Below, piece by piece: positions 1,780 through 23,019 of a DNA stretch of 45,164 nt. The stretch's first letter is position 1, and the number at the start of each line of letters is the position of its first letter. Both the position numbers and the translations under genes were made by a program. The notes under the pieces are model-generated. The model was not told the origin of the DNA and made no database searches. It worked only from the letters and a program-made list of their open reading frames with translations. This DNA comes from Bacilli bacterium (lineage in GTDB: Bacteria > Bacillota_I > Bacilli_A > RF39 > UBA660). Where the stretch lies: contig JAEETF010000025.1 of assembly GCA_016290195.1 (NCBI GenBank), forward strand, positions 1 to 45,164, read 5' to 3'.

Positions 1780-2888
1780 ATAGGTAAAATTAATTCAATT
1801 AGATCTTGATTATCACTACTCTTTATTATTATAGGTTTTACTTCTCCATTAAAACAAATAATAACATCATCAGCAGTAAATGCTTTTAAAGCATCCATCA
1901 TATACTTAGAACTAAATGAAATTTTTATATTTTCTTTATTATTTTTCTTTACAATTATATTTTCCTCTACATTACCTATTTCAGGTATATTAGATGAAAT
2001 TTTTATTTTATCATCAAATGTTTCAAGATTAATTGTATTTTTATCATCTTGATTTGTTAATAAAGAAGCTCTATCAAGTGCTGTATATAATTCATTTAAA
2101 TTTAATGATACTTCAAGCATGAATTCTGTTGGTATTAATTTTGCTGTATCTGGATATGTCCCATTTATTAATGTAGTCATCATTATTATATTATCAAATT
2201 TAAATATAACTTTATTATTAAATATATGCATTTCTATATCTTCTTCATTATCATTAATTAATTTAACTAATTCATTTAAATTTTTTGTAGGAATAATTAT
2301 ATTAATTAAATTTTCCACATTACAATTTAATTTTATAGTTTTTTTAGATAATCTATAGGAATCAGTTGCTACACATTCCATTACATCATTTTCTATTTTA
2401 AAATTAATTCCTGTTAAAACTGGTCTAGATTCTTGAGTAGATGCTGCAAAAGATGTTTGATTTATTATATTTTTAAATATTCTTCTATCAATACATATTG
2501 GATTTTTACTAACATCTAGATTTAAATCTGGAAAGTCATTAACATTATTACAATTTAAATTAAATGAAGAATTATCATTATATATATATAACTTTGAATC
2601 AACTACTTCTTCAAGATTTACTAAATTGTTAGGCATTTTTCTTATTATTTCATAAATATATTTACCAGATACAACAATAGATCCTGTTTCTACTATTTCT
2701 TCTATTTCTTGTCTTGGTATAAAAGTTTTAATAGCTATTTCATTATCTGTACTCATTAAATATAATCCATCACTTGTTAAATCCATTTTAATACAGTTTA
2801 GAATAGGAATTAAATTTTTAGTAGATACCCCTTTTATTACATAATTTAAATGTTCCATCAATTTTGATTGTTTAATTTTTAATTTCAT
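1767..2888 (-). CDS. dnaN: DNA polymerase III beta sliding clamp
   Basis: 373 aa; SRPVLTG, ATDSYRL, GTYPD, C-terminal LILPIRTY; downstream of dnaA. Confidence 0.98.
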   Translation of the reverse strand: MKLKIKQSKLMEHLNYVIKGVSTKNLIPILNCIKMDLTSDGLYLMSTDNEIAIKTFIPRQEIEEIVETGSIVVSGKYIYEIIRKMPNNLVNLEEVVDSKLYIYNDNSSFNLNCNNVNDFPDLNLDVSKNPICIDRRIFKNIINQTSFAASTQESRPVLTGINFKIENDVMECVATDSYRLSKKTIKLNCNVENLINIIIPTKNLNELVKLINDNEEDIEMHIFNNKVIFKFDNIIMMTTLINGTYPDTAKLIPTEFMLEVSLNLNELYTALDRASLLTNQDDKNTINLETFDDKIKISSNIPEIGNVEENIIVKKNNKENIKISFSSKYMMDALKAFTADDVIICFNGEVKPIIIKSSDNQDLIELILPIRTY

Positions 2889-3023
2889 ATATATTCTCCT
2901 TTATTTTTTAATATTATTATTATTATTGTGGAAAATGTGGAAAACTTTTATTTTTTATTTATTTATAATACTTAATCCAAAATAATAATATACATTATAT
3001 TGTGTAAAAAAAATTTTTTTCAA
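2889..3023. promoter_or_regulatory. oriC unwinding half (dnaA-dnaN intergenic): tandem DnaA boxes plus DnaA-trio-like repeats
   Basis: TGTGGAAAA at 2927-2935 and 2936-2944, TGTGTAAAA at 3001-3009; (TAT)5 run at 2912-2926 abutting the box pair; AT-rich. Confidence 0.8.
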
Positions 3024-4373
3024 CTATTTTATTTGATTAATAATCTTTTTAATAACTAATTCTAGATTATTATCTTTTTTTATAGCTTTTTTAATTTTAT
3101 CAACAGAGTGCATAACTGTTGTATGGTCTTTTCCACCAAATTCCATACCTATTTTTGGATAAGATTCTTCACAAGCAACTCTACATATATACATTGCTAC
3201 TTGTCTTGGGCCAGCAATACTAGCATTTCTTTTTTTACTTTTTAAATCATCTATTGAAATATTGTAAGCATCAGCAACTAATTGTTGAACCATATCTATT
3301 TTATTTTTAGATATTATAGTTTTAACAAAATAATCTTTTAAAGCTTCTATTGTTAATTCTAAATCAATATTTACTCCACCCTTCATTGCTGAATAAGCAA
3401 CAACTCTGGTAATGGCCCCTTCCAATTTTCGAACATCACTATCGCAGTTACTAGCAATATAGTTTTTAACATCTTTAGGAATATCACTAACCATTGCATT
3501 TCCTTCAATTTTTTTCTCAATGATATGAAGTCTAAGTTCAAAATCAGGTGGTAATATATTTGTGGTTATTCCCCAGTGAAATCTAGTTTGTAATCTTTCC
3601 TCAAGAGCTTTTAAATCATCTGGTGAACGATCGGATGTAATTATAATTTGTTTATTACTTCCATGAAGCTCATTAAATGTGTTGAAAAATTCTTGCTGAG
3701 CTTTGTTAGCTATTTGAAGATATTGAATGTCATCAATCATTAATACATCAATATCTCGATATTTTGATTTAAAATATTTAACATCATTTATATTATCGTT
3801 TTCTTTGTTCTTACGATATAAATCAATAAAATCATTAACAAATTGTTCACTTGTTACATATAATACTTTCTTTTTTGAATTTTTTATAATATAGTTACCA
3901 ATTGCGTGCATTAAATGTGTTTTACCAAGTCCACTTTTTCCATATATAAATAACGGATTGTACATCATACCTGGTTTTTCTGCAACCGCAAGAGCAACAG
4001 TATGGGCAAATTTATTACTATCCCCTACTATAAAATTATCAAACGTATATTGTGGTTTTAAATTATTTTCATATGTATTTGATGGAATACCAATATTACT
4101 AGTATCAATTTCCACATTTTGCTCTATTTCATCATCTATATAGTATTCAAATTGAAAATTAGAACCTGCTACACTAGCAAAGTTTTCCACAATAAAGTCA
4201 TTATAGTTTTCTTTTAAATGTTTCTTATGAATATGCATAGGAACTATAACTTTAGCAATTCCATCATTTAATGAATGTAATTTTGTTTCACTAAACCATG
4301 TTTCAAAAAGCATAGGTGCTATTTCATCTTTTATTTTATCTAAGAAAGATTGCCATATTACATTTAAGTCCAT
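3024..4373 (-). CDS. dnaA: chromosomal replication initiator DnaA
   Basis: YTFDNF, NPLFIYGKSGLGKTHL, IDDIQ, ITSDR, GGKDHTTV. Confidence 0.99.
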   Translation of the reverse strand: MDLNVIWQSFLDKIKDEIAPMLFETWFSETKLHSLNDGIAKVIVPMHIHKKHLKENYNDFIVENFASVAGSNFQFEYYIDDEIEQNVEIDTSNIGIPSNTYENNLKPQYTFDNFIVGDSNKFAHTVALAVAEKPGMMYNPLFIYGKSGLGKTHLMHAIGNYIIKNSKKKVLYVTSEQFVNDFIDLYRKNKENDNINDVKYFKSKYRDIDVLMIDDIQYLQIANKAQQEFFNTFNELHGSNKQIIITSDRSPDDLKALEERLQTRFHWGITTNILPPDFELRLHIIEKKIEGNAMVSDIPKDVKNYIASNCDSDVRKLEGAITRVVAYSAMKGGVNIDLELTIEALKDYFVKTIISKNKIDMVQQLVADAYNISIDDLKSKKRNASIAGPRQVAMYICRVACEESYPKIGMEFGGKDHTTVMHSVDKIKKAIKKDNNLELVIKKIINQIK

Positions 4374-4798
4374 ATCCTCACCTACTAACTAACTCACAAT
4401 TTCATTTTACCTTAAATTTAAACAAAAAACAAACAAAATGTGGAAAAAAATTAAAAAAATAAAAATTTCCACAATAAAAAAGTATAAAAAAATAGTAAAA
4501 GTGCAAAAAAAAATAGAAATACACATAGTTATACACATCTAAAATTACTTATTTTTATTAAATTTTTTAAATTATTAACAATAGTTGTGGAAAACTTCTA
4601 CATAATAATAAACAATGTTATAATTTTTTCCACAATATATGTGTATAAATTAAAAAGAATAGAAAAAATAATTAAAAAATAATGTGGAAAATTAATTTTA
4701 ATTAAAAATAAAGAAAATGTTTGACATTTAGTATATTTATATATATAATTAAACAAGTAAACAAATGAATTTGAATTTTAGTACAGGAGGTGTCTTGA
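4374..4798. promoter_or_regulatory. oriC upstream half / dnaA-rpmH divergent promoter region with DnaA-box cluster
   Basis: TTTTCCACA-type boxes at 4439-4447, 4586-4594, 4626-4634, 4683-4691; ATTTCCACA 4465-4473; TTATACACA-type at 4529-4537 and 4640-4648; gene orientation flips here; candidate dnaA promoter TTGTTT-17-TAAAAT (minus, 4432-4404). Confidence 0.85.
4721..4749 (+). promoter_or_regulatory. consensus sigma-A promoter of rpmH operon
   Basis: TTGACA-17 bp-TATAAT. Confidence 0.85.
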
Positions 4799-4921
4799 AT
4801 GAAAAGAACTTATCAACCAAATAATAGAAAAAAATCTAAAAAAATGGGTTTTTTAGCGAGAATGGAAACAAAAATAATTAATAGTCGTCGTCGTAAAGGA
4901 CGTAAAGTTTTATCTCATTAA
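4799..4921 (+). CDS. rpmH: 50S ribosomal protein L34 (40 aa)
   Basis: Not in ORF track; AGGAGG SD; [40 protein letters not shown]; divergent from dnaA, upstream of rnpA. Confidence 0.97.
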
Positions 4922-4928
4922 TTAAAAG

Positions 4929-4952
4929 AACGTCACTGATTGGTGACGTTTT
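4929..4952 (+). terminator. stem-loop/partial terminator between rpmH and rnpA
   Basis: AACGTCAC-tgattg-GTGACGTT followed by TT. Confidence 0.5.
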
Positions 4953-4975
4953 AATCTTAATTAGGAGTGAATAAT

Positions 4976-5332
4976 ATGAAAAAAATTAATATAATTAAAA
5001 AGAATGATGAATTTACTCGTATTATAAAAAATAATAGATCATTTAAATCAAAATACTTTATTATTTATGTGGAAAAAACTGAAGAAGAAATTTATCATTT
5101 TGGATTGTCAGTAGGTAAAAAAGTAGGCAATGCTGTTACGAGAAATAAAGAAAAAAGAAGAATTAAATCTATTTTAGATAAATTTATCTTTAAAAAAGGC
5201 TTTAATTGTATTATAATTGTGAAGAGGGAAATAGTAGATAAATCTTTCAAAGAAATGGAAGAAGATTTGATATTTGCTATTAAAAAATTAGATATAATAA
5301 AGGAGAGTAAAGATGAAGAAAAAAAGTATTAA
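4976..5332 (+). CDS. rnpA: ribonuclease P protein component
   Basis: IKKNDEF, FGLSVGKKVGNAVTRNKEKRR (RNR-like motif); start set at ATG 4976 after GGAGTGA. Confidence 0.95.
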   Translation: MKKINIIKKNDEFTRIIKNNRSFKSKYFIIYVEKTEEEIYHFGLSVGKKVGNAVTRNKEKRRIKSILDKFIFKKGFNCIIIVKREIVDKSFKEMEEDLIFAIKKLDIIKESKDEEKKY

Positions 5333-6248
5333 AGTATTAGTATTATTTGCATTATTATTAACATTAACAGGATGTACAAAATATATAAAAAATGATGGCA
5401 AAGTAGTAAAAAATCCAGAAACAGGACAAAGTTTACCACAAAATATTTTATGCCAAGTAGAAGATGAGAAAACTATAGAAATATATAAAGAAAATGGCAT
5501 CAATATGGAAGATTATCCAAAATGTAGTGAATTTAAAGTTACTAGTGGTGGATATGATGGTAGTTTATTCTCAGCCATATTTGTAAAACCACTTGCATGG
5601 TTAATAATTAAATTTGGTATTCTTTTTAAAAACTATGGTGTAGCAATTATACTTGTTACTTTATTAATAAGATTAGCTATGTATCCAATGACAAAGAAAA
5701 CTGCTATGCAATCTGAAAAGATGAAATATGCGCAAAAAGAATTATCAAATTTGGAAGCAAAATATAAAGATAAAAAAGATCAACAAAGTATGATGCAAAA
5801 GAGTCAAGAAATGATGATTATATATAAAAAATATAATATAAATCCTATTTCTGGTTGTTTATTTGCATTAATACAAATTCCACTTTTCTTTTCATTCTAT
5901 GAAGCAATGAATCGTTTACCAGCAATTTTTGAAGAGAATTTCTTAGGTTTCCAACTAGGAACAAGTCCATTAACAGCTATTCAAAATGGAAAATATTATT
6001 ACATTATATTTGTTGTTTTAGTGGCAGTAGCAACTTTCTATTCATTTAAATTGAATAGTGGTGCAAGTATGTCACCAGATCAAGCAAAACAAATGAAAAT
6101 GTTCTCAAAAATTTCAGTAGTTATGATTACAGTTGCAGCTATTACAATGTCAGTTGGTATTCAATTATACTGGATATTCAATAGTACATTCACAATAGCC
6201 CAAAATTTATTAGTAAAAAGGATGAAGAAAAATGTTGTTATTAAATAA
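5313..6248 (+). CDS. yidC: membrane protein insertase YidC/SpoIIIJ (lipoprotein signal)
   Basis: lipobox LLTLTGC; NYGVAIILVTLLIRL, NPISGCL..LIQIP, LYW; follows rnpA. Confidence 0.95.
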   Translation: MKKKSIKVLVLFALLLTLTGCTKYIKNDGKVVKNPETGQSLPQNILCQVEDEKTIEIYKENGINMEDYPKCSEFKVTSGGYDGSLFSAIFVKPLAWLIIKFGILFKNYGVAIILVTLLIRLAMYPMTKKTAMQSEKMKYAQKELSNLEAKYKDKKDQQSMMQKSQEMMIIYKKYNINPISGCLFALIQIPLFFSFYEAMNRLPAIFEENFLGFQLGTSPLTAIQNGKYYYIIFVVLVAVATFYSFKLNSGASMSPDQAKQMKMFSKISVVMITVAAITMSVGIQLYWIFNSTFTIAQNLLVKRMKKNVVIK

Positions 6249-6852
6249 GTATGTATATGAAGAAAAAAATTTAGATAAAGCTTTTGAAAAATTTGAACAA
6301 GAAACAAATTTAACAAAGGAAGATGTATTATATACATCAACAGAAGAAAAAGGTGGATTATTAAAATCTTCTAAAGTAATATTAGAAATTGTTAAAAAAG
6401 GAGATTTAATTAGTTTTATAAAAGATTATTTTGATAATCTTGCAAATGGATTAAATATTCAAATTAATACTGAAATAAATATTGAAGAAGATATTATTAA
6501 TATTAATTTAAGTTCTAATGATGCATCTGCCTTAATAGGTAAAAATGGTAAAATGTTAAATTCATTACAAGTATTATTAAGAAAAATGATTGAAGTAAAT
6601 ACAAATGTAAGTCTAAAAATTAATTTAGATGTGGAAAACTATAAGAAAAGAAAAATTAGTTATTTAGAACGTGATATTAAGAAAATAATTAAAGAAGTTT
6701 TAAGAACAAAAGTAGATGTTAAATTAGATCCAATGAATTCTTATGAAAGAAGAATAGTTCATAATTTAGTGAGTAATTATGGACAATTAACATCTGAAAG
6801 TGAAGGCGAAAGTCCAAACAGATGTGTTGTAATCAAATATATTGAAGGATAA
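6232..6852 (+). CDS. jag: Jag/KhpB/EloR RNA-binding protein (KH + R3H)
   Basis: EEKGGLL, LIGKNGKML (KH GxxG), PMNSYERRIVH (R3H), SEGESPNR; follows yidC. Confidence 0.92.
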   Translation: MLLLNKYVYEEKNLDKAFEKFEQETNLTKEDVLYTSTEEKGGLLKSSKVILEIVKKGDLISFIKDYFDNLANGLNIQINTEINIEEDIININLSSNDASALIGKNGKMLNSLQVLLRKMIEVNTNVSLKINLDVENYKKRKISYLERDIKKIIKEVLRTKVDVKLDPMNSYERRIVHNLVSNYGQLTSESEGESPNRCVVIKYIEG

Positions 6853-6869
6853 GCATCGCTTATTCTTTT
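6844..6869 (+). terminator. intrinsic terminator after jag
   Basis: GAAGGATAAGC-atc-GCTTATTCTTT hairpin. Confidence 0.5.
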
Positions 6870-6885
6870 ATTTAGGAGGAAAAAA

Positions 6886-7392
6886 ATGTCTAAAAATATT
6901 AATCTAGATAATGATTATTATGAGATTGTAAAAGATATTATAGAAACAGATGAATTTAAAAAAAGAAAAAATTATCGCCATCATGGTGAAATAAGTGTTT
7001 ATGAACATTCATTAAGTGTATCTATATGCTCATATAATTTTGCACGAAAAATTAATTCTATTTTTAGAAGAGAAATAGTAAATGAAAATAATATGGCAAT
7101 AGCTGGGATTTTGCACGATTTTTATTATAATGATTATACAAAATCTAAAGAAAAAAAGAGTTTGTTTAAAAAACATGGATTTGTGCATGCAAGAGAAGCA
7201 TTGGAAAATTCAAGAGAAAAATTTCCACAATATATGAATGATCATATTGAAAATACAATTTTAAGACATATGTTTCCTTTAAATATTACACCTCCTAAAT
7301 ATATTGAAGGCTGGATAATTGTCTTTGTTGATAAAATAGTATCTTTAGAAGTTTTTCCATACTTAATAAAAAAATTAGTAAGGAGTATATAA
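6886..7392 (+). CDS. HD-domain phosphohydrolase
   Basis: HHGEISVYEHS, GILHDF, HGFVH, RHMFPL, VDK metal-binding pattern. Confidence 0.8.
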   Translation: MSKNINLDNDYYEIVKDIIETDEFKKRKNYRHHGEISVYEHSLSVSICSYNFARKINSIFRREIVNENNMAIAGILHDFYYNDYTKSKEKKSLFKKHGFVHAREALENSREKFPQYMNDHIENTILRHMFPLNITPPKYIEGWIIVFVDKIVSLEVFPYLIKKLVRSI

Positions 7393-7393
7393 T

Positions 7394-8743
7394 ATGGATG
7401 ATACAATAGCTGCGATTTCAACATCATCTGGTGTTGGAGCAATTTCGATAATTAGAATAAGTGGTAAAAATTCTATTGAAATAGTAAATAATATAACAAA
7501 CATAGATTTATTAAAAAAAGAAAGTCATACTATTAATTATGGCTTTATTTATGATAAAGAAATAATGATTGATGAAGTATTAATAACAATAATGAAAGCT
7601 CCAAAAACTTTTACAAAGGAAGATGTTGTAGAAATTAATTGTCATGGTGGAGTAGCAGTAACTAACAAAATATTAGAAATACTATTAGAAAATGGATGTC
7701 GTCTAGCAGAACCAGGTGAATTTTCAAAACGTGCATTTTTAAATGGAAGAATAGATTTATTAGAAGCAGAAGGTATTATGGATATGTTAAATGCTAAAAA
7801 TGAATCAGCTCGCCGTTTAGCCATGAATAATATTAATGGTAATTTATCAACTAAAATAAGAAATATAAGAGAAAAATTAATTCAAATGTCAGCAAATATA
7901 AGTGTTAATATTGATTATCCAGAATATGATGATGTTAAAGAAGTAACAAATGATAATATTTTAGCTGAATTAAATGAAGTTGAAATAAAAATTAATGAAT
8001 TAATAAAAGAAAGTAAAAATGGTCAAATTATAAAAAATGGTATTAATACTGTTATTATAGGAAAACCAAATGTAGGTAAGAGTAGTTTACTTAATTTATT
8101 ACTTGACGAAGATAAAGCAATAGTAACTGATATTCCTGGTACAACAAGAGATATAGTAGAGGGAAATATTAATTTTGATGGTATTTTATTAAATATAATA
8201 GATACTGCTGGAATAAGAGAAACTGAAGATATTGTTGAAAGCATTGGTGTAAAAAAAAGTTTAGAATATATTGATAAAGGTGATTTAATAATTTATTTAT
8301 TAAATAATAATGATGAATTAACTAATGAAGATTATGAAATATTAGAAAAAATAAAAAATAAAAATCATATAATTCTTATTAATAAAATAGATTTAGATAA
8401 TAAATTAGATAAATCAAAAATAAATGAAGAATATATTGAAATAAGCGTAAAAGAAAAAATAGGTCTTGAAAAATTAAAAAATACTATTAGAAAAATGTAT
8501 GAACTTGAGAAAATTGAAAATAGTGATTATACATATTTATCTAATGTTAAAGATATAAACAATTTAAAAGAATGTTTAAATTTAATTAAAAGTATAAAAG
8601 AAAATATAGAAAATGATATGCCAATTGATATTATTGATATAGATATTAAACATATTTGGGAAATACTTGGTTTAATAACTGGTGATACATATGATGAAGA
8701 ATTTTTGGATGAGTTATTTAGCCGTTTTTGCCTAGGTAAATAA
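7394..8743 (+). CDS. mnmE: tRNA modification GTPase MnmE (TrmE)
   Basis: DTIAAIST, GKPNVGKSS, GTTRD, DTAG, NKID, C-terminal FCLGK. Confidence 0.99.
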   Translation: MDDTIAAISTSSGVGAISIIRISGKNSIEIVNNITNIDLLKKESHTINYGFIYDKEIMIDEVLITIMKAPKTFTKEDVVEINCHGGVAVTNKILEILLENGCRLAEPGEFSKRAFLNGRIDLLEAEGIMDMLNAKNESARRLAMNNINGNLSTKIRNIREKLIQMSANISVNIDYPEYDDVKEVTNDNILAELNEVEIKINELIKESKNGQIIKNGINTVIIGKPNVGKSSLLNLLLDEDKAIVTDIPGTTRDIVEGNINFDGILLNIIDTAGIRETEDIVESIGVKKSLEYIDKGDLIIYLLNNNDELTNEDYEILEKIKNKNHIILINKIDLDNKLDKSKINEEYIEISVKEKIGLEKLKNTIRKMYELEKIENSDYTYLSNVKDINNLKECLNLIKSIKENIENDMPIDIIDIDIKHIWEILGLITGDTYDEEFLDELFSRFCLGK

Positions 8744-8759
8744 AGAAGAAGGTGTCATA

Positions 8760-10631
8760 ATGAATTATGAAATAATAGTAGTAGGTGGAGGCCATGCTGG
8801 TTGTGAAGCTGCATTAGCGTCAGCAAGAAAAAATCATAAAACATTACTAGTAACAGGAAATATTAAAAATATTGCAGATATGCCATGTAATCCATCAATA
8901 GGAGGATCTGCAAAAGGAATAGTAGTAAGAGAAATAGATGCTCTTGGTGGTGAAATGGGTAGAAATGCCGATAAATCATTACTACAAATAAAGATGCTTA
9001 ATAATAAAAAAGGTCCAGCCGTTCAAGCGTTACGTGCACAAGCAGATAAAATAACTTATCCACAGGAAATGTTAAAAACACTTCAAAATGAATCAAATTT
9101 AGATATAAAAGAAGAACTTGTAAAAGATTTAATAGTCGAAAATAATGTTGTAAAAGGTGTTATTTTAGAAAATGAAGAAAGAATAAGTAGTAAATGTGTT
9201 ATTTTAACAACTGGTACTTATATGAAAGCAGATATACTTGTTGGAAGTACACGTCATAGAGAAGGTCCACATGGAGAAAAACCAAGTAATTATTTAAGTG
9301 AAAACTTGGAAAGATTAGGATTTACAATCAAAAGATTAAAAACAGGAACTCCACAAAGAATAGCTAAAGATAGTATAGATTATTCTGTATTAAAAATGGA
9401 ACCAGGTGATGATTGTTACCATACATTTAGTTTTGATAACAAAATATATTATGATAAAGAAAAGCAAGTTCCTTGTTATTTAACATATACAACAGATGAA
9501 ACACATAAAATTATTAGGGAAAACTTAAATAAATCAAGTATGTATGGTGGTTTAAGTGATATAAGAGGTATAGGTCCAAGATATTGTCCATCAATTGAAG
9601 ATAAAGTAGTAAGATTTGCTGACAAAGAAAGACATCAATTATTTTTAGAGCCAGAAAGTTTATATTATGATGACATATATTTACAAGGTTTTTCTACAAG
9701 TATGCCTCATGAAATTCAAGAACAAATGGTTCATTCGTTACCAGGTCTTGAGAATGCTAAAATACTTAAATATGCATATGCTATTGAATATGATGCAATT
9801 TATCCAACTCAGTTAAAACAATCACTTGAAACAAAATTAATAGAAAATTTATTTACTGCAGGTCAAATAAATGGTACTAGTGGTTATGAAGAAGCAGCAT
9901 GTCAAGGATTAATAGCTGGTATAAATGCCGCATTAAAAATAGAAAATAGAGAACCACTCATTTTAAAAAGAAATGAGGCATATATTGGTGTATTAATTGA
10001 TGATTTAGTTACCAAAGGTATAAGAGATCCTTATCGTTTACTTACTTCAAGAGCTGAATATAGATTATTATTAAGAAGTGATAATGCGGATTTAAGATTA
10101 AGTAAGATAGGTTATGATTTAGGGCTTTTACCAGCTGAAAGATATAAAAAACTAGAATCTAAAAAACAAAAAATAGAAGAAATGCTAGAATTTTTGAAAA
10201 ATAATAAAATTACACCAAAAGAGGAGATAAATAATAAATTAATAAGTTTTAATTCTAGTCCTATTAAAGATGGTATAAAATTATATGATTTATTAAGACG
10301 TCCTGAAATAAGAATGGAACATATAAAAGAATTTATAGATATTCCATTTGATGAAGAAGTTATTGAGCAAGTTGAAATAAATATTAAATATGAAGGATAT
10401 ATTAAAAAAGAAGAAAAAGAAGCAGAAAAAATGCTTACTTTAGAAAATAAAAAGATTCCAGAAAATATTGATTATTATAGTATTCATAATTTGGCTAGTG
10501 AAGCAAAACAAAAATTAACTGAAGTAAAACCAACATCAATTGGCCAAGCATTACGTATAAGTGGTGTTAATCCAGCAGATATATCAATATTAAGTATTTA
10601 TCTAAAGAAAAATCATAATTATGAATCTTAA
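8760..10631 (+). CDS. mnmG: tRNA uridine 5-carboxymethylaminomethyl modification enzyme MnmG (GidA)
   Basis: GGGHAGCEAA, MPCNPSIGG, RYCPSIEDK, AGQINGTSGYEEAA. Confidence 0.99.
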   Translation: MNYEIIVVGGGHAGCEAALASARKNHKTLLVTGNIKNIADMPCNPSIGGSAKGIVVREIDALGGEMGRNADKSLLQIKMLNNKKGPAVQALRAQADKITYPQEMLKTLQNESNLDIKEELVKDLIVENNVVKGVILENEERISSKCVILTTGTYMKADILVGSTRHREGPHGEKPSNYLSENLERLGFTIKRLKTGTPQRIAKDSIDYSVLKMEPGDDCYHTFSFDNKIYYDKEKQVPCYLTYTTDETHKIIRENLNKSSMYGGLSDIRGIGPRYCPSIEDKVVRFADKERHQLFLEPESLYYDDIYLQGFSTSMPHEIQEQMVHSLPGLENAKILKYAYAIEYDAIYPTQLKQSLETKLIENLFTAGQINGTSGYEEAACQGLIAGINAALKIENREPLILKRNEAYIGVLIDDLVTKGIRDPYRLLTSRAEYRLLLRSDNADLRLSKIGYDLGLLPAERYKKLESKKQKIEEMLEFLKNNKITPKEEINNKLISFNSSPIKDGIKLYDLLRRPEIRMEHIKEFIDIPFDEEVIEQVEINIKYEGYIKKEEKEAEKMLTLENKKIPENIDYYSIHNLASEAKQKLTEVKPTSIGQALRISGVNPADISILSIYLKKNHNYES

Positions 10632-11382: not shown

Positions 11383-11416
11383 ATATTATAGAATAGAAAG
11401 ATAGTTGGTGGTTGAT

Positions 11417-13174
11417 ATGAAGGAAGGCAAAAACGTAATACAAATAAATCTTAATGATATATTACCAAATCGTTTTCAACCAAGAATAAAATTTAATGAA
11501 AAATCAATTGTTGAATTATCTGAATCAATAAAAGAACATGGTGTTATTCAACCAATCATTGTTCGAAAGATAAGTGATAAGTTTGAAATAATAGCAGGTG
11601 AAAGAAGATATAAAGCAAGTGTATTAGCAGGTAAAACTGATATACCAGCAATTATAGTTGATTTGAATGATAAAGATAGTTCAGAAATTGCTCTTATTGA
11701 AAATGTTCAGAGAGAAGATTTAACTGCAATTGAAGAAGCTATCTCATATCGAAAAATTCTTGATATGGGATATTTAACACAAGAAGCATTAGCTAATAGA
11801 CTTGGCATTGCTCAATCAACAATTGCAAACAAAATTAGATTATTAAATCTTGATGATGATGTCCAAGAAGCTTTACTGGATGGTAAAATTTCAGAGAGAC
11901 ATGCTAGATCTTTATTAAAATTATCTCCATCTTTACAAAAAAAGATGCTTGATAAAATAATAAGTGAAAGATTAACGGTTAGAAAGACTGATGAGGTGAT
12001 AAATGATATGTTAAAAAATGAAACTGTTTTAGATAGCTTAAATGCAAATGTTTCAGATATGACTCCAACAAATGATGTAGTAGTTGCTCCAAGTGAAAAT
12101 CCATTTTTACTAAATAATATGTCATCACCATCATCTCCAAATGTTGAAGTTTTAGATTTAGGTTATGCAGATATAAAAGCACCAAATGCAAATATTCCAT
12201 CAAGTCCTATAATAGAAGATGATGTAGTAGTGCCACAAATGCCAGTTCAGAAAGAAATTCCAGCTATGAGTCAACCAGCCGAAGTGATTCCACAACCAGT
12301 GGCATATTCCACTTCAGTTGAAATGGCGCCACAAATACCAGTTCAGGAAGAAATTCCAGCTATGACTCAACCAGCCGAAGTGATTCCACAACCAGTAGCA
12401 TATTCCACTTCAGTTGAAATGGCACCACAAATGCCAGTTCAGGAAGAAATTCCAGTTATGATTCCAACTCAGCCAATAATTGAAGATAATAGTTCATTTG
12501 AAGGTCCTTCACCAATGCCTATTCCAACAGCACCAATTCAAAAAATAAGTGTAGAAGAACCAATTCAAGAAGAAGTACATCAAAATAGATTTTTTACAAT
12601 GATGGCTCCACAACCAGAGGAGATACCTGTTCAAATAGATAATTCAGTTATGAATAATCAATCTGAAAAAGTTGTTCCACCAGTAGAACTAGCAGTCCCT
12701 GATTCAAATTTAAACATATTTGATTCAAGTGCAATTAATAATCAACAATTTGTTCCAACACAACAAGTAAGTATCACTCCTGAAACAGTAGCACCTATTC
12801 AACAAATTCCAGTTGAAAATAATATATTTAATGCTGCTCCAGTATATCAAAATGCAGTACCTACTCCAGAGATGCCTATTCAAAATTTTGAACAGCCAGT
12901 AATTGAAGATAATTCAGATGATACTGAAATAGAAGATACACCAATTGATATTGTAGAATCAGATGAACCAATAATTCAACAAGTAGTTCCTTTAACTGTA
13001 GATCAACCAATGATTCAAACAGTACCAGTTCAAGAGGAAAGTTATAACTTAAGAGATGTTATAAATAAAATGCGTAAATGTGCAGATGAAATAGAAGCGA
13101 TGGGATTTGAAATAGACACTGAAGAATTTGATTTTGATGATATGTATCAAGTAATATTTAAAATTAAAAAGTAA
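11417..13174 (+). CDS. noc: nucleoid occlusion protein Noc-like ParB-family CTPase with long low-complexity insertion
   Basis: PNRFQPR, GERR, LIENVQREDL; HTH TQEALANRLGIAQSTIANKIRLL..ERHAR is Noc-like; Noc-like C-terminal domain; position directly after rsmG; start set at ATG 11417 after GGTGG. Confidence 0.8.
   Translation: MKEGKNVIQINLNDILPNRFQPRIKFNEKSIVELSESIKEHGVIQPIIVRKISDKFEIIAGERRYKASVLAGKTDIPAIIVDLNDKDSSEIALIENVQREDLTAIEEAISYRKILDMGYLTQEALANRLGIAQSTIANKIRLLNLDDDVQEALLDGKISERHARSLLKLSPSLQKKMLDKIISERLTVRKTDEVINDMLKNETVLDSLNANVSDMTPTNDVVVAPSENPFLLNNMSSPSSPNVEVLDLGYADIKAPNANIPSSPIIEDDVVVPQMPVQKEIPAMSQPAEVIPQPVAYSTSVEMAPQIPVQEEIPAMTQPAEVIPQPVAYSTSVEMAPQMPVQEEIPVMIPTQPIIEDNSSFEGPSPMPIPTAPIQKISVEEPIQEEVHQNRFFTMMAPQPEEIPVQIDNSVMNNQSEKVVPPVELAVPDSNLNIFDSSAINNQQFVPTQQVSITPETVAPIQQIPVENNIFNAAPVYQNAVPTPEMPIQNFEQPVIEDNSDDTEIEDTPIDIVESDEPIIQQVVPLTVDQPMIQTVPVQEESYNLRDVINKMRKCADEIEAMGFEIDTEEFDFDDMYQVIFKIKK
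12233..12460 (+). repeat. 96-bp (32-aa) coding tandem repeat, about 2.4 copies
   Basis: units start 12233, 12329, 12425: PQMPVQKEIPAMSQPAEVIPQPVAYSTSVEMA, near-identical DNA. Confidence 0.95.
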
Positions 13175-17332: not shown

Positions 17333-17362
17333 AAAATGTGTTATAATAAAAGAGGTGACTTT

Positions 17363-17761
17363 ATGAAAAAGAAGACTAAAACTATTAAAGTATTAGATGC
17401 AATAATATCTATAATTATTTATTCTATAATATTGATAACAGTATCTCTTATATTTGATGATACAGTATATATTGATAACGCTTATTATGGTGTTTATAGC
17501 TTACTTGCTTCTTTTATAATATATATACTAAATAGAACTGTAAAACCAATACTTGTTTGGATTACAATACCTATTACTGCAATAACTTTTGGTTTATTTT
17601 ATCCTATGATAAATGTATTTATATTAAAAATAACAGATTGGATACTTTTCTCTCATTTTGAAATAAAAGGTATTATTATTCCATTTTTTGTGGCCATTAT
17701 AATATCTATAACACATATAATTATGGAGCATTTTGTAAATAAGATATTGGAGGCTAAATAA
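17363..17761 (+). CDS. YvlD-like (phage holin family 4_2) membrane protein
   Basis: LNRTVKPIL..ITIP.T..TFGLF..IN pattern, 4 TM; syntenic between uvrB and lgt; AGAGGTGA SD. Confidence 0.8.
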   Translation: MKKKTKTIKVLDAIISIIIYSIILITVSLIFDDTVYIDNAYYGVYSLLASFIIYILNRTVKPILVWITIPITAITFGLFYPMINVFILKITDWILFSHFEIKGIIIPFFVAIIISITHIIMEHFVNKILEAK

Positions 17762-18537
17762 TGAATAGTGTCTTAATTGATTTAGGATTTATAAAAATAT
17801 ATTGGTATTCTTTCTTTATTTGTGTGGGTTTTGTTTTAGGCGCAATACTTGCTTTAAGAGAAGCCAAGAAAAAAGGAATTTCTAAAGATGTAATGTTAGA
17901 TTATTTCTTTTATTTAATACCGATTGTTATATTAGGAGCCCGTTTATATTATGTATTGTTTAATTTTGATAATTATCGTGATAATTTAATAGATATTTTT
18001 AAAGTATGGGAAGGCGGATTAGCTATTCATGGAGGAGTAATAGCTGGTATCATATGGACTTATATATATTCTAAAATTAAAAAGATTAATTTCTTTTTAA
18101 TCACTGATATAATGGTTGTAAGTTTAATTCTTGGCCAAGCAATTGGAAGATGGGGTAATTTCTTCAATCATGAAGCACATGGTCCTATGATTGAACTAGC
18201 TACATTACAAAAAATGAATATACCACAATTTATAATAGATGGCATGTTTATAAGAGGTAATTATTATGAACCTACTTTCTTTTATGAATCAATTTGGTGT
18301 TTGTCTGGATTTATAGCCCTAGTAACGCTAAGATTAACTAAAAAATTACGTATAAGCAATTTAACATCATTTTATTTAGTATGGTATTCTATTGGTAGAT
18401 TTTATATAGAATCATTAAGAACTGATAGCTTGATGTTTTGCGGTTTAAAAGTTGCTCAAATAATTTCTATTTGTGCAATTATTGCAGGAATAATAATATT
18501 TATATTTTCATTTAAAAAAAAGAATAAACTTTATTGA
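17761..18537 (+). CDS. lgt: prolipoprotein diacylglyceryl transferase
   Basis: IYWY, GARLYYV, WEGGLAIHGG, QAIGRWGNFFN.E, PTFFYES, E.LRTD. Confidence 0.98.
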   Translation: MNSVLIDLGFIKIYWYSFFICVGFVLGAILALREAKKKGISKDVMLDYFFYLIPIVILGARLYYVLFNFDNYRDNLIDIFKVWEGGLAIHGGVIAGIIWTYIYSKIKKINFFLITDIMVVSLILGQAIGRWGNFFNHEAHGPMIELATLQKMNIPQFIIDGMFIRGNYYEPTFFYESIWCLSGFIALVTLRLTKKLRISNLTSFYLVWYSIGRFYIESLRTDSLMFCGLKVAQIISICAIIAGIIIFIFSFKKKNKLY

Positions 18538-18553
18538 TAAGTTTATTCTTTTT
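18517..18553 (+). terminator. intrinsic terminator after lgt
   Basis: AAAAAGAATAAACTT-7 nt-AAGTTTATTCTTTTT. Confidence 0.65.
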
Positions 18554-18555
18554 AA

Positions 18556-18585
18556 TAGACAAAAATATAGAAAAAATGGTATACT
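18556..18585 (+). promoter_or_regulatory. sigma-A-type promoter of the pilin-like gene
   Basis: TAGACA-18 bp-TATACT with TG extension. Confidence 0.6.
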
Positions 18586-18626
18586 TTAGTGTAGGATAGA
18601 TAAATAATAAAGATAAGGTGATAGCG

Positions 18627-21600
18627 ATGAAAAGAAAAGGATTTACTTTAGTAGAATTATTAGCTGCCATTTTAATTATTGGAATAGTAGCATTAATTTC
18701 AGTGCCAATATTTAATTCGACAGTTAAAAATTCAAAAAAATCAACTTTTCAACAGAATGCTGTTAACATATTAAAAATGGTACATATAGAACGTAACAAC
18801 GATGGTAAGACTAATGATAGCGATATTGTTGAAGAATATATAATAAGTTCAGCTGATAATGCTGTTTATTTTAATGGTGAAAAAATAAGTACAGATTATG
18901 ATGGAAAAATAGATGGAGATGGTGTTGTAAGTATTGATAGTGATGAAAGAACTGCAATACTATATTCAAATAGTGAATGGTGTGCTTATAAGTTTTTTGA
19001 TGACACAGATGTTAAAATAATAGATGGTAATTGTGATTCAATTATGACTAATTGCAATAATCCAGAAATAATTATCAATCCAGAAAACAAATGGTCACAA
19101 TATAAAGTAGTAAGTACAAATTTTATTAGAGGTATATGTGGAAGTGTAAAATATAGTCTTAATGGTGAAAATTATGAGGAATATAGAGGGCAAGTTGAAA
19201 TAAGAACGAATAATACTAATTTTTCTCTAAAAACGATTAAAAATGACAATTCAGAAATAATTAGAACGGCTCAAATTACAAATATTGATACAACAGCTCC
19301 TACAAATGTAAGTGCAAGTGTTTCAATAGATAATTCAACGCTTACAATCGTTGGATATGCATCAGATTTAGAAAGCGGAATATCAGCATATGCATTTAGC
19401 CTTGATGATGGGAAAACATGGTCATCTTATCAAGAAACAAATACATATACTATTACTAATCCAGAAAACAAAACATATATGATAAGAGTAAAGGCTTATA
19501 ATGGTACATATAATAGTATAGGTGCTCAAGAATCACTTGGTGCTTCAATATCTGATGCAGTAATTACAACAATTCCATCTTGTCCACTACCAACATTTAG
19601 TGTTACACCAGCTGCAAATATTTGGACACAAAAGAAAATTGTTACGATAGATTATCACAATTCAAATAATAGTGAATGTGTAGGTAGTTATAGCATAGAT
19701 GGTGGAGTAACATGGCAAACAGGTAATTCTGTTATATTTACTGGTGAAGGAAATATAAGTGCTAAAACTGAGAAAAACGCAAATAATAAAAATATTAACA
19801 ATTTAAGCATAATAAATGTTGATAATACTAAACCAAATTATGTGAATTTTTCATACAGTAGAACAACAAATAGTATTACAATAATACCAACTGCTATAGA
19901 TTCAGAAAGTGGAATATGGGGTTACGAATACTATTTGGATAATGAACTTCGTGGAACATCAAGTGATCCAACATTTACTTTTACAAATCTTTCTACAAAT
20001 GTAAAAGACACGTACGATGTAAAAATAGTTGCTATAAATAATGCATATCAAAATACTCCATCGGAAGATAAAAATAAATTGATAGGTTCGCTTGAATCAG
20101 AAACTAAAAGTATTAAATTATTGGTATGTCCAGCTCCAACATTTAAGGTGGAACCAAGTGGTAGTGAATGGGTTCCTTCAAGAACAGTGCATATTCAATA
20201 TGGTAATGTAAATGGTTGCATAGGTTCTTATAAAAAAGATGATGGACAGTGGACAAGTGGTGATACTGTGGTATTCACTGCCAATGGTCACTTGGATGCT
20301 AAAAATACTGATGGTACAAATGAAGTACATGCAATTTCTTCTATTGAAATAATTAATGTTGATTCAGTACCTCCAACATTTACTAGTTTATCAGTTGAAT
20401 CTCCATTAACAGGTAGTTATCCACAAGGCGAAAAGATAAGAATAGCAGCAACATTTAGTGAGAATGTTTATACTAGTGATAAACAATTATTATCTACTGA
20501 TATTTCACAAGCTCCAAATCTAAGTATAAAAATTGGATCAGGTTCTGTAATAAATGTACCTAAAAAATCTGTAAGTGGAAATAAAATTATTTATGAATAT
20601 CAAACAACAAAAGATGATCTAGGAGTAGTATCACTAGTATCATTTAGTGGAACAATTTATGATAGAGCTGCTAATAATTTAACAGTTACTACTCCAACTA
20701 GTGTAGGTGGTTTACCTATTACAATTGAAAAAAATATTCAAATAGCAACAAGTGGAAATTCAAAAGTAGTGATTTCTTCGCCTAAATTACCATCTGGTGG
20801 TGATTGGGTATTTGAATATGCTATAGATGGAACAGATTTTTATCCAGCCACAAATCCTCAAGAACTATCACCAATTGCTAGTACCACTATATATGCTAGA
20901 TATAGACAAACAGGTACTAATTCTACTTCATTACCTGTAGTTACTTGTGAAACTGAATATCAATTTATTTCAGGAGATACACGTACAGTAATGCTAGATG
21001 ATTTTATTGGTAAATTTGTCACTAATTTTGTTTCAAATAATGGTTATTCTAGATGGAGAATATTTGGGGTATATGATGGTGCAGTGTGGTTGATACCAGA
21101 ATATTATATTCCAACATCACAAATTAATAATAATTGTTCAGAATACTGGAGTAGTTTTGAAGGAGTAGCACTTGACACAGATTGTTTCCATATAGTTAAC
21201 AACTATGTTATAAAGAATAATACTATGTGCGATGGTAGTTGTTTAAGCTATGGTTTTACTAAACAAGCCGTATGGTCAAGATTAATTGATAATACATTTA
21301 CTGACTATATTCAAGGAGCAGCACAGGGTGATTTATTCATATCGTCATATAATAGCGTGGAACATACTCCAGGCTATAGACAAAAATTTGAACAATTAGG
21401 AATTATTGCTACAACATCACCTACTTCCGACAAAATAGATCCAAATGATTATAAAAATAATAATGATGGAAGTAACTATGGATTATGGGCTATAGATTCA
21501 CAAACAAACGCTTCAGCTTATTTCCTATATGATTATTATGGTGGTAGTCATTATGCAATATGGAATGATGGCCATATGGCCCCAACTGATACAGATGCAA

Positions 21601-22946
21601 GTAGAGAAAATTCTGGATATTCACCAAATCCAGTTGGAATAAGGCCTGTTGTTAAATTAAAAAACAATACTAAATTTACTAAGCATGTTGACGAAAATGA
21701 TATAATCACATATACAATTGAATTAACAAATGAATCTGCTAAGCCAACAGTTGATTTTACAATGTCTCATGCGGGTTCTATCGTAACATCTGGTTCCAAT
21801 GTATATGGTGAAGTTACAGTAGTGGCAACATGTAATAATCCACTTAATAATGGTATTAAAAAATATAATATTGAAGTATATGATGGTGAAACTTTAAAAA
21901 CTTCTACAAATAATTCAACGATTACATTTGATGCTTCAACATTTACTACTAATAATATAAATATAAGTGCTACGTGTACTACTGCAACAGGTATTAATAG
22001 TGATTCAAAAACAGCAATCTTATATAAAGTTGCTCCACCAGCTCCAACAATTGATTACACAATTACTTATGGTGGACTAACTATACCATCAGGTTCAACA
22101 GTTAATGGAACAGTAACTATTAATGCTGTATGTAATAATCCATATGGCTATAATACGAGGGCATTTAATATTGAAATCTATGATGGAACAACATTAAAAT
22201 CAAACTCATCAACTTCTACGGCAACTTTAGATTCTAGAACATTTACAAGCAATAATATAAATATAAGTGCAACTTGTACATCTACTACAGGTGTAACAAG
22301 TGTACCAAAAACGGCAACTTTAGTTAAAGGAGCTGAAGCAGAGACAACAACTTGTGAAATAATTCAAGGACGTTGTGCACCTTTATGTAACAATGAAAAA
22401 TCAATATATATTACTAATTGCAATAATTTGTGTGGAAATGATCCAAATTATCCCGAATGTTCCGACTGTTCATCTTTCGGAGAAACACAACGTATAAGTT
22501 GTATGTCAACATGTATGTCGTCATTAGGTGAAGATTATAATTTGTCATGTACAATCGGTGGATCTTCTTCAAGTGATGAAGCAACTTGTTCGCAAATAAT
22601 TTCTACATGTTCTGTTAATTGTTCAAATGCTGGTTCAAGTTGTTATAGCGCTTGTTCAGCAGCCGGAGCTTCAAATTGTTCTAGTTGTAGTAATGCAGTT
22701 TATTCATGTTTGAATTCTTGTGTAAAATATAGAGCTCGTGCAAGTGAGATAGAGTGTGAATACTCTGTTTCAAGTGGAGGTTCTGATTCTTGTGGCGCAG
22801 ATGCTATGGAAAGATGTCAACAACATGAAGCAGGGCAATCTTGCTGGAATGTTTCTGAGTCACCAGATGGAAGCCAGCATGTTGAATATGGTGGCAGTGT
22901 TGAATGTAGATGCCTTGATGGTTCTGTAGTACCAGTTTGTAATTAA
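18627..22946 (+). CDS. giant prepilin-type N-terminal cleavage/methylation domain protein (type IV pilin-like adhesin) with Ig/FN3-like repeats and Cys-rich C-terminus
   Basis: MKRKG|FTLVELLAAILIIGIVALISVP class III signal with E5; repeated beta-rich modules; 26 Cys in last ~200 aa; AAGGTGA SD before ATG 18627. Confidence 0.85.
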   Translation: MKRKGFTLVELLAAILIIGIVALISVPIFNSTVKNSKKSTFQQNAVNILKMVHIERNNDGKTNDSDIVEEYIISSADNAVYFNGEKISTDYDGKIDGDGVVSIDSDERTAILYSNSEWCAYKFFDDTDVKIIDGNCDSIMTNCNNPEIIINPENKWSQYKVVSTNFIRGICGSVKYSLNGENYEEYRGQVEIRTNNTNFSLKTIKNDNSEIIRTAQITNIDTTAPTNVSASVSIDNSTLTIVGYASDLESGISAYAFSLDDGKTWSSYQETNTYTITNPENKTYMIRVKAYNGTYNSIGAQESLGASISDAVITTIPSCPLPTFSVTPAANIWTQKKIVTIDYHNSNNSECVGSYSIDGGVTWQTGNSVIFTGEGNISAKTEKNANNKNINNLSIINVDNTKPNYVNFSYSRTTNSITIIPTAIDSESGIWGYEYYLDNELRGTSSDPTFTFTNLSTNVKDTYDVKIVAINNAYQNTPSEDKNKLIGSLESETKSIKLLVCPAPTFKVEPSGSEWVPSRTVHIQYGNVNGCIGSYKKDDGQWTSGDTVVFTANGHLDAKNTDGTNEVHAISSIEIINVDSVPPTFTSLSVESPLTGSYPQGEKIRIAATFSENVYTSDKQLLSTDISQAPNLSIKIGSGSVINVPKKSVSGNKIIYEYQTTKDDLGVVSLVSFSGTIYDRAANNLTVTTPTSVGGLPITIEKNIQIATSGNSKVVISSPKLPSGGDWVFEYAIDGTDFYPATNPQELSPIASTTIYARYRQTGTNSTSLPVVTCETEYQFISGDTRTVMLDDFIGKFVTNFVSNNGYSRWRIFGVYDGAVWLIPEYYIPTSQINNNCSEYWSSFEGVALDTDCFHIVNNYVIKNNTMCDGSCLSYGFTKQAVWSRLIDNTFTDYIQGAAQGDLFISSYNSVEHTPGYRQKFEQLGIIATTSPTSDKIDPNDYKNNNDGSNYGLWAIDSQTNASAYFLYDYYGGSHYAIWNDGHMAPTDTDASRENSGYSPNPVGIRPVVKLKNNTKFTKHVDENDIITYTIELTNESAKPTVDFTMSHAGSIVTSGSNVYGEVTVVATCNNPLNNGIKKYNIEVYDGETLKTSTNNSTITFDASTFTTNNINISATCTTATGINSDSKTAILYKVAPPAPTIDYTITYGGLTIPSGSTVNGTVTINAVCNNPYGYNTRAFNIEIYDGTTLKSNSSTSTATLDSRTFTSNNINISATCTSTTGVTSVPKTATLVKGAEAETTTCEIIQGRCAPLCNNEKSIYITNCNNLCGNDPNYPECSDCSSFGETQRISCMSTCMSSLGEDYNLSCTIGGSSSSDEATCSQIISTCSVNCSNAGSSCYSACSAAGASNCSSCSNAVYSCLNSCVKYRARASEIECEYSVSSGGSDSCGADAMERCQQHEAGQSCWNVSESPDGSQHVEYGGSVECRCLDGSVVPVCN
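21744..22330 (+). repeat. two diverged 100-aa (300-bp) Ig-like repeats within the pilin-like gene
   Basis: PTVDFT...VATCNNP...TFTTNNINISATCT (from 21744) and PTIDYT...NAVCNNP...TFTSNNINISATCT (from 22044). Confidence 0.85.
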
Positions 22947-22977
22947 GGAAAACACATTTTATTGTGTTTTTCTTTTT
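22945..22977 (+). terminator. intrinsic terminator after pilin-like gene
   Basis: AAGGAAAACACA-ttttat-TGTGTTTTTCTT plus U-tract. Confidence 0.65.
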
Positions 22978-23019
22978 AATAATTAAGAAAATATAGTATA
23001 ATATTAATTGGTGAGATTT

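Follow-up and report, generated by a model that had tools for sequence, protein, structure and literature searches.

A stand-alone 1,439-residue modular prepilin in a Bacilli bacterium of the family UBA660, a candidate tip adhesin of a type IV pilus

We analysed a 45,164-nucleotide stretch of DNA (the window) from a Bacilli bacterium of the GTDB lineage Bacilli_A, RF39, UBA660 (assembly GCA_016290195.1, contig JAEETF010000025.1), in which a modular type IV prepilin of very large size is encoded by a single plus-strand gene. Contig C45 of genome G000 corresponds to the window; the assembly totals 1.13 Mb in 88 contigs, with 25.1% guanine plus cytosine (GC), 89% completeness and 4.6% contamination. 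The program-made list of open reading frames (ORFs) gives the gene as one long frame at 18618 to 22946, opened at GTG. The ATG at 18627 is a better start, because AAGGTGA lies 5 nucleotides ahead of it and because it begins the leader MKRKG followed by FTLVELLAAILIIGIVALISVP, with 1,439 residues uninterrupted by a stop. The gene, its modules and its flanking signals are listed below.

18517 to 18553, plus strand: hairpin with U-run after lgt, likely terminator (-13.8 kcal/mol, z -5.74; 0 of 200 shuffles equal)
18556 to 18585, plus strand: promoter-like TAGACA, 18 nucleotides, TATACT, with a TG-extended -10 (consensus matched at 10 of 12 positions)
18615 to 18621, plus strand: ribosome-binding site AAGGTGA, 5 nucleotides ahead of the ATG (direct sequence reading)
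18627 to 22946 (stop included), plus strand: coding sequence of the 1,439-residue modular prepilin, intact frame; orthologues 75% and 71% identical
18627 to 18641, plus strand: leader MKRKG, residues 1-5; N_methyl and IV_pilin_GFxxxE over cut-off, cleavage predicted after Gly5
18642 to 19052, plus strand: pilin module, residues 6-142; Phe+1, Glu+5, alpha1 helix, beta-sheet head, Cys119-Cys136 loop
19053 to 19283, plus strand: A1, residues 143-219; immunoglobulin (Ig)-like beta-sandwich with CxxP...W...C.G
19284 to 19577, plus strand: B1, residues 220-317; FN3-like by fold match
19578 to 19820, plus strand: A2, residues 318-398; SxDGGxTW Asp-box-like motif, 35% identical to A1 and 41% to A3
19821 to 20126, plus strand: B2, residues 399-500; FN3-like, 34% identical to B1
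20127 to 20360, plus strand: A3, residues 501-578; third CxxP module
20361 to 20723, plus strand: B3, residues 579-699; by alignment another Ig-like type, ESGI motif absent
20724 to 20951, plus strand: A4, residues 700-775; degenerate A-like module with a Y.IDG core, 9-16% identical to A1-A3, weakly supported
20952 to 21683, plus strand: X domain, residues 776-1019; 244 residues ending GIRPVVKLK, possibly DUF6273-like
21744 to 22025, plus strand: R1, residues ~1040-1133; FN3/PKD-like beta-sandwich with one Cys pair, predicted local distance difference test (pLDDT) 78-89
22026 to 22322, plus strand: R2, residues 1134-1232; FN3/PKD-like, pLDDT about 80-90
22323 to 22943, plus strand: Cys-rich tail, residues 1233-1439; 207 residues, 26 Cys, six CxxxC motifs
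22945 to 22975, plus strand: hairpin with U-run straight after the stop codon, likely terminator (-12.9 kcal/mol, z -6.05; 0 of 200 shuffles equal)

The amino terminus carries the class III signal (KG/FTLVE) proposed in the initial annotation. Pfam N_methyl (PF07963) matched residues 2-25 (E = 1.4e-6; 28.1 bits, cut-off 21.2), NCBIfam IV_pilin_GFxxxE (TIGR02532) scored 26.3 bits (cut-off 16.3), and Gly-1, Phe+1 and Glu+5 can be read directly in MKRKG/FTLVE. No other Pfam or NCBIfam family exceeded its cut-off over the whole protein. The NCBIfam models for ComG, GspG/H/J and PilV were sub-threshold and confined to the N-terminal ~40-80 residues. Membership of the ComG minor pilins (ComGC-ComGG) was rejected on these scores (best ComGE, 32 bits, cut-off 49; ComGC, ComGF and ComGD lower). 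An LPXTG sortase-anchored protein was likewise rejected, the C-terminus (...CRCLDGSVVPVCN) having no LPXTG, hydrophobic stretch or basic tail.

Residues 1-330, modelled from an alignment of 24 relatives (mean pLDDT 86), form a 51-residue helix at 8-58 (pLDDT 86-91 there) and six strands between 69 and 133 (DSSP). As modelled, this order of helix and then strands is the layout of a pilin, in agreement with the pilin-sized head seen earlier. Cys119 and Cys136 flank a 16-residue loop that closes the head, presumably the loop typical of the pilin D-region, and the next module begins at Cys143. In phmmer searches the alpha1 region matched solved pilins, including PilE1 of Streptococcus sanguinis (8pfb; residues 6-68, E = 8.8e-5) and a Geobacter pilin (7tgg; E = 3.3e-5). 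G5, F6, T7, L8 and E10 were invariant across the 24 aligned family sequences, and stand-alone pilins of 137-148 residues from same-genus genomes aligned to residues 1-136 at ~34% identity.

The head is followed by a long series of beta-sandwich modules. Three modules with the CxxP...W...C.G pattern start at residues 143, 319 and 501 (pairwise identity 23-41%), and the B modules at 220-317 and 399-500 carry D.T.P...D.ESGI. The suggested alternation of three CxxP modules with FN3/Ig-like ESGI modules therefore stands for three A and two B modules, the third interleaved module being of another Ig-like type. By VIA-align, B1 matched 9kvu_A (Z 11.1; root-mean-square deviation (rmsd) 2.1, 84 aligned) and the Fn3 of Clostridium thermocellum CbhA (3pdg_A; Z 9.6). 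Pfam gave sub-threshold Reelin_subrepeat-B and BNR matches on A2, a weak fn3 match at 402-480 within B2 (E = 0.18) and, at E ≤ 10, no match on residues 571-774. A-type modules in relatives bear precomputed Pfam matches to PF03174, PF21471, PF02012 and PF07495; we take PF03174 to be the chitobiase/hexosaminidase C-terminal domain, which agrees with the source name of one relative.

Beyond the X domain, the two expected 100-residue repeats were recovered at 1033-1133 and 1134-1232 (52% identity), both with an FN3/PKD-like fold. R1 matched PKD1 of PrtV (4l9d_A; Z 10.2, rmsd 1.7), R2 matched 2c4x_A (Z 10.8, rmsd 1.9) and the R1-R2 tandem matched the Fn3 of CbhA (3pdd_A; Z 11.6). The chain thus totals about nine Ig/FN3-like beta-sandwich modules, one 244-residue domain and a Cys-rich cap. 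A beta-sandwich module is ~3.5-4 nm long, and the nine-module stalk, if extended, would by our estimate measure some 30-40 nm.

The two remaining parts, the X domain and the tail, were less readily placed. AlphaFold with a four-row alignment gave a pLDDT of about 30 across the X domain; Pfam returned no match at E ≤ 10, and an exhaustive search of 1.84 billion representatives found orthologues as its only relatives. The label 'lectin-like', earlier attached to residues ~776-1019, drew no support from any test run. In the ESM Atlas the domain lies near DUF6273-bearing clusters (feature score 0.93; 174-182 features in common), and its terminus GIRPVVKLK resembles the G[IV]RPV[IV] ending of DUF6273 domains. 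Alignment by hhalign with the DUF6273 (PF19789) segments of relatives P0041 and P0025 and of an ORF on contig C69 gave a probability of 4.6% over 11 columns, covering the terminal GIRPV only, and no hit fell in the window when the genome was searched for DUF6273 in six frames. The X domain is therefore possibly DUF6273-like, as a lead from the Atlas. The C69 ORF (locus L049, 832-3267, plus strand; at least 812 residues) itself has two DUF6273-like stretches (23 bits) ending IRPVIP and C-terminal ankyrin-like repeats; a near-duplicate of its C-terminal segment lies just upstream, and no signal peptide was visible by eye.

The tail proved as Cys-rich as first described, holding 26 of the 43 Cys of the protein. 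It was modelled as helices with low confidence and had a match in neither the ESM Atlas nor Pfam (E ≤ 10). An exhaustive phmmer search with residues 760-1439 recovered only the orthologue cluster P0002 and a Calx-beta/type IX secretion system (T9SS) protein that matched the 100-residue repeats. Across the three orthologues, conservation in the body is about 75-85%, only a handful of columns stay invariant after residue 1243, and tail length differs. A tail variant with an in-frame 6-nucleotide insertion occurred in one metagenome run, and the contig of another strain diverges after 22194. Given the few invariant tail columns, the length differences and the strain variants, the distal end is, by these comparisons, the fastest-evolving part of the protein.

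We examined how this architecture is distributed amongst relatives. A word-indexed protein search returned 64 proteins, the query among them. The two orthologues (1,348 and 1,288 residues) have intact frames. About a dozen prepilins of 900-1,800 residues matched only the first 30-40% of the query, that is, the head and a varying number of A/B modules, and many non-pilin proteins matched the Ig-type modules only. Adding P0065 from the exhaustive phmmer search gave a set of 65 proteins, 28 of them prepilin-type and at least 300 residues long. A Cys-rich end (last 120 residues at least 8% Cys) occurred in 10/28 of these prepilins versus 0/37 of the others. A G[IV]RPV[IV]-type terminus occurred in 6/28 (P0014, P0025, P0029, P0033, P0041 and P0057), and DUF6273 was present in both of the two such prepilins scanned with Pfam. 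Two scans of metagenome contigs found no orthologue loci.

N_methyl was detected (E ≤ 1e-3) in 40/41 genomes of the same family (0.8-1.5 Mb), and with G000 set aside the counts were 0-33 (median 9) in the other 40. Amongst the 150 matches listed of 452, at least 10 lay in open frames of at least 800 residues, and the prepilin frames of relatives included 2,302, 1,804 and 1,233 residues. In a class-wide sample (E ≤ 1e-5), 46/47 genomes outside the family had 0-5 matches, the exception being a 0.9-Mb genome from another family with 21, and four genomes of the studied family had 3-19. This pattern suggests a family-wide expansion of large pilins with swappable distal caps in ~1-Mb gut Bacilli; it is a described pattern rather than a statistical test, because related genomes are not independent. 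The earlier proposal that pilus machinery displays interchangeable adhesins or effectors fits in its word 'interchangeable', as relatives share the head and stalk and differ at their distal ends; for display itself, and for an adhesin or effector role, we infer rather than observe.

The genome also encodes a prepilin peptidase, a PilB-type ATPase and a PilC-type platform, so that a check on whether peptidase and assembly ATPase were missing did not count against a pilin. The one Peptidase_A24 match is a 272-residue protein (A24_N_bact plus Peptidase_A24). Adjoining it is a 652-residue protein with two T2SSF domains, which has a full-length PilC/GspF match behind a 250-residue N-terminal extension. 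On contig C46 (locus L008, whole region 1797-10435, minus strand) this pair stands directly upstream of a separate, complete-looking Tad/Flp operon encoding Flp, two TadE-like proteins, a CpaE/TadZ-like ATPase, TadA, TadB and TadC. The TadB-like protein carries a Bact_surface_Ig-like/HYR insert, and a single prepilin peptidase was found for both the PilC/PilB and the Tad systems. The second T2SSE ATPase, on contig C40, has 544 residues and aligned to PilB positions 177-560 of 564. Its gene (within 3225-8730 of locus L009) stands alone, encodes a ~155-residue C-terminal extension and is divergent from two ALK_LTK_GRD glycine-rich-domain proteins (571 and 680 residues). A third T2SSE-type ATPase, the candidate for PilT, was not found in the 89%-complete assembly, whose two T2SSE ATPases include TadA. 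The idea that the lineage lost its sortases and uses pilins instead was ruled out by three Sortase matches over cut-off.

Motif scanning and family searches together found 14 prepilin genes in the genome, each solitary in the stretches examined. Ten are uncut (120, 132, 150, 307, 316, 332, 348, 471, 546 and 1,439 residues) and four are cut by contig ends (at least 28, 105, 1,025 and 2,529 residues). The largest (contig C29, locus L010, 1-7589, minus strand) exceeds the studied gene and has N_methyl at 2-25, GLUG at 2338-2363 and otherwise nothing recognised over at least 2,529 residues. In the prepilin ORF on contig C44 (locus L011, 6165-9233, plus strand; at least 1,023-1,025 residues) only N_methyl was recognised, and it is 22% identical to residues 2-472 of the studied protein. 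Contig C36 (locus L012) holds two pilins: one of 332 residues (4235-5230, plus strand) with N_methyl and Laminin_G_3 (ConA-like lectin), between rmuC-like and pgk genes, and one of 120 residues (9647-10006, plus strand), between a Spo0A-like regulator and rbfA.

In the window the gene sits in a housekeeping block, as described at first. Upstream lie gidA, gidB, parB, DUF4186, DUF3137, uvrB, a holin-4-like membrane protein and lgt; downstream are cofD/yvcK, whiA, relA/spoT, a plsC-like gene, a hybrid kinase, a DHH protein, L9, dnaB and an M23 peptidase. None of the 20 flanking ORFs scanned was pilus-related, and the other pilin genes of the genome, where looked at, are likewise solitary and have housekeeping neighbours. 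The ParB homologue (11405-13174, plus strand; 589 residues) has ParB_N and HTH_ParB only within residues 10-203, the other ~385 residues having no Pfam match at E ≤ 1e-5. Directly upstream of lgt, 17336-17761 (plus strand) encodes a 141-residue Phage_holin_4_2 membrane protein. The same arrangement occurs in 5/21 family genomes, and this protein appears to be a housekeeping membrane protein rather than a phage remnant because it is conserved next to lgt across genomes.

The gene's flanking signals were assessed against shuffled sequence. A GC-based terminator scan found none flanking the gene; the AT-rich hairpins were spotted by eye and then folded, and each beat 200/200 shuffles. The upstream hairpin would likely insulate the pilin gene from upstream transcription. 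Promoter-like sites were no commoner in the window (38 found) than expected from shuffles (45), and a promoter at 18556-18585 is plausible, although such a match is weak evidence alone because AT-rich DNA held no excess of these sites. Of the promoter and terminators credited to the gene at the outset, the terminators are thus likely and the promoter no more than plausible.

The slot occupied by the gene is variable. Holin, lgt, cofD and whiA are contiguous in 5/21 family genomes examined. In 1/21 (G008, contig C18, locus L039, 517-1443) lgt and cofD are separated by a gene for ~300 residues. The same-genus genome G001 has it there too (contig C2, locus L048, 2487-3389), and by its CA.CDG motif this gene looks like a thioredoxin reductase. 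In the other 15/21 there was no lgt hit within the upstream flank available (≤1.5 kb); with the same flank scope, 0/21 had a pilin hit in the lgt-cofD slot. Since relatives leave the slot empty or fill it otherwise, the block is conserved around a variable site that, on this comparison, the pilin gene occupies at species level. GC content at third codon positions (GC3) of the gene (0.115) is like that of its neighbours (0.085-0.158), and a recent foreign origin is accordingly unsupported. The first ~40 nucleotides of the gene (18627-18666) are matched by many unrelated metagenome contigs that then diverge. The DNA for the signal and alpha1N therefore appears nearly identical across many pilin genes of these communities, and may be a substrate for recombination between them.

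Runs with the gene came from bovine, sheep and goat gut metagenomes. One independent ruminant-gut run held a 2,769-nucleotide contig with 23 differences, another held pieces with 0-3 differences over much of 18801-23000, tail included, and contigs were 99-100% identical in independent ruminant-gut runs. Uncovered parts in single runs, and two apparent joints in one run with sides of 21-22 nucleotides, were set aside as unreliable. A polyA RNA library yielded two identical 151-nucleotide contigs; as the library may contain DNA, these were not counted as expression. With its host-like GC3, orthologues at 71-75% identity and near-identical contigs in independent runs, the gene is real and maintained.

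We consider it probable, with moderate confidence, that the protein is a modular minor type IV pilin acting as a tip adhesin on a non-retractile type IV pilus. The proposed mechanism draws on type IV filament biology as described in parts of PMC10191384 and PMC8179133. The hydrophobic alpha1 segment would insert the protein in the membrane with the ~1,300-residue remainder outside, and the single PilD-type peptidase would cut after Gly5 and methylate Phe+1. The head would then join a minor-pilin complex that primes the filament, after which the PilB-type ATPase and PilC-type platform would polymerise a small major pilin and push the tip protein through the wall. The stalk would hold the X domain and Cys-rich cap off the cell, for ligand binding in the ruminant gut. 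With no retraction ATPase (PilT) found, the fibre probably remains static and serves adhesion, not twitching. Cleavage, filament incorporation and ligand binding of the 1,439-residue prepilin are what we infer from its sequence and genomic setting.

Several observations weigh against a tip adhesin. The presumed binding parts, the X domain and tail, have no fold or family by Pfam, Atlas, phmmer, hhalign or AlphaFold. The head fold has no solved-pilin match, the Foldseek (against the PDB) and VIA-align lists covering residues 142-320 only because FN3/Ig hits filled both lists for the 1-330 model. The machinery is split over two contigs, the ATPase has no PilB N-terminal region and the PilC-type protein bears its long N-terminal extension. 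PilM_2 had one marginal match (28 bits, cut-off 27) in an assembly that is 89% complete. No major pilin was singled out in the genome, and its three Sortase matches mean that other display routes exist.

Some of these points would equally suit a pilin-anchored surface fibril, in which the signal and alpha1 serve only as a PilD-processed anchor or part of a very short pseudopilus; the fibre would then be the wall-spanning stalk, with no long pilus taking part. Such an arrangement would resemble the bindosome-type surface proteins of archaea, which bear class III signals. We judge this alternative unlikely, though it is the strongest of those weighed. It would accommodate the minimal, dispersed machinery with no PilT found (two T2SSE ATPases, one of them TadA), the failure of a major pilin to stand out and the odd ratio, for one filament, of 14 scattered prepilin genes with at least 9 of at least 300 residues; about nine beta-sandwich modules could also cross a Gram-positive wall unaided. 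However, Glu+5 and the full-length alpha1 are conserved, as expected if the helix must pack in a filament, small pilins of 120-150 residues are available for the shaft, and the characterised modular pilins in the part of PMC8179133 consulted are filament-borne.

An enzyme or effector delivered by the pilus, with the X domain or the Cys-rich tail catalytic or metal-binding and acting, for example, on plant fibre, mucin or the envelope of another microbe, is less probable still. PMC8179133, in the part used here, catalogues modular pilins with predicted peptidase modules, FN3-like modules of the matched type typically occur in glycoside hydrolases of clostridia (such as CbhA, chitinase ChiA74 and CelAly), and the X domain has no assigned function. 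Set against this, no catalytic family was found at E ≤ 1 over the whole protein or at E ≤ 10 over segments, the sole lead for X is DUF6273, a domain of unknown function, and the tail is hypervariable between close orthologues, unlike an active site. That the gene is a decaying recent insertion in the lgt-cofD slot, unexpressed or dead, is very improbable: the empty or differently filled slot of relatives and the weak transcription evidence (the two short contigs of the RNA library) would allow it, but a 4.3-kb frame is open in a 25% GC genome, both orthologue frames are intact, the start region, ribosome-binding site and terminator hairpins are preserved, codon usage is host-like and identity is 99-100% in several independent runs.

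As a modular minor pilin, the protein can be compared with systems already in print. Raynaud et al. 2021 (PMC8179133) describe, in the sections drawn on here, >1,200 modular pilins with 264 architectures, mostly bimodular, with FN3 (IPR003961) as one of the domains often grafted. Among multi-domain cases, the extreme that those sections name has 860 residues and 12 repeats; Dataset S1 of that paper may list larger or similar ones. The studied protein agrees with the definition of a modular pilin, having a short linker from the end of the head (Cys136) to the first Ig-like module (Cys143) and FN3/PKD-like folds at Z 10-11.6.

The closest likeness is to S. sanguinis PilB (vWA) and PilC (ConA-like lectin), which, in the same sections of PMC8179133, also combine signal and pilin module, short linker and modules foreign to pilus biology in a monoderm. 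The PilC architecture (N_methyl plus Laminin_G_3) is that of the 332-residue paralogue in the same genome. As described there, PilB and PilC each have a single grafted module and a mass of about 50 kDa or less, whereas the studied protein has about eleven modules in 1,439 residues; its gene is also monocistronic and far from pilus genes, and its Cys-rich cap matches no family.

The type IVb minor pilins CofB and TcpB share a pilin module, flexible linker and beta-rich domains, and are thought to be tip-located and assembly-starting (PMC8179133 and PMC10191384, as far as consulted). According to these sources CofB has two additional domains and, unlike the studied protein, is encoded within the operon of its pilus, and no CofB/TcpB sequence relation appeared among word-search relatives or phmmer matches to solved structures. 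PilY1/PilC of diderm type IVa pili, as outlined in PMC8179133, are likewise large tip-carried modular adhesins with variable N-terminal binding modules and a carrier-plus-effector logic. PilY1, on the same account, is not a pilin and ends in a C-terminal beta-propeller, whereas the studied protein has its own class III signal. Membership of PilY1 was rejected, no such domain being among the five Pfam families listed at E ≤ 1 and the protein's own prepilin signal being present. PMC11680825, in the portion seen, concerns a Tad-type cluster in the Clostridia order TANB77 and not the studied family, and literature searches on giant pilins and on pili or pilins of RFN20 and RF39 turned up no paper on that family.

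The novelty suggested for the architecture and its use is therefore partial. Grafting modules on pilins for display is already published, as PMC8179133 makes plain in the sections used, and a stand-alone, very large modular prepilin is what the present case adds. Of interest are how large the protein is, its cap rich in Cys, and a scattered repertoire that extends across the lineage and is served by a minimal machine. With the principle itself already published, what is gained lies in scale and distribution and not in a new kind.

We put forward a broader proposal tentatively, and with more doubt than conviction. A stripped-down PilB/PilC/PilD machine without a retraction ATPase may serve as a general display platform in this family of ~1-Mb gut and rumen Bacilli, carrying a large, fast-turnover repertoire of individually transcribed, scattered giant pilins. 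Head and (Ig-FN3)n stalk would be kept while caps are swapped (Cys-rich knob, DUF6273-like, ConA-like lectin, GLUG), with species-level insertion in housekeeping slots. Such pilins could be the main route by which these reduced, probably partner-dependent cells attach to host, fibre and microbes.

This gut lineage, uncultured and with reduced genomes, devotes >1% of its DNA to three giant pilin genes (at least 15 kb of 1.13 Mb). If our reading is right, monoderm type IV pili can carry subunits ten times the normal pilin size, which bears on membrane extraction and on filament start. The conserved head and stalk with exchangeable caps could serve as a display scaffold. The lineage would also be a natural library of stalk-and-cap adhesins, and an entry to finding the attachment targets of these organisms in the rumen.

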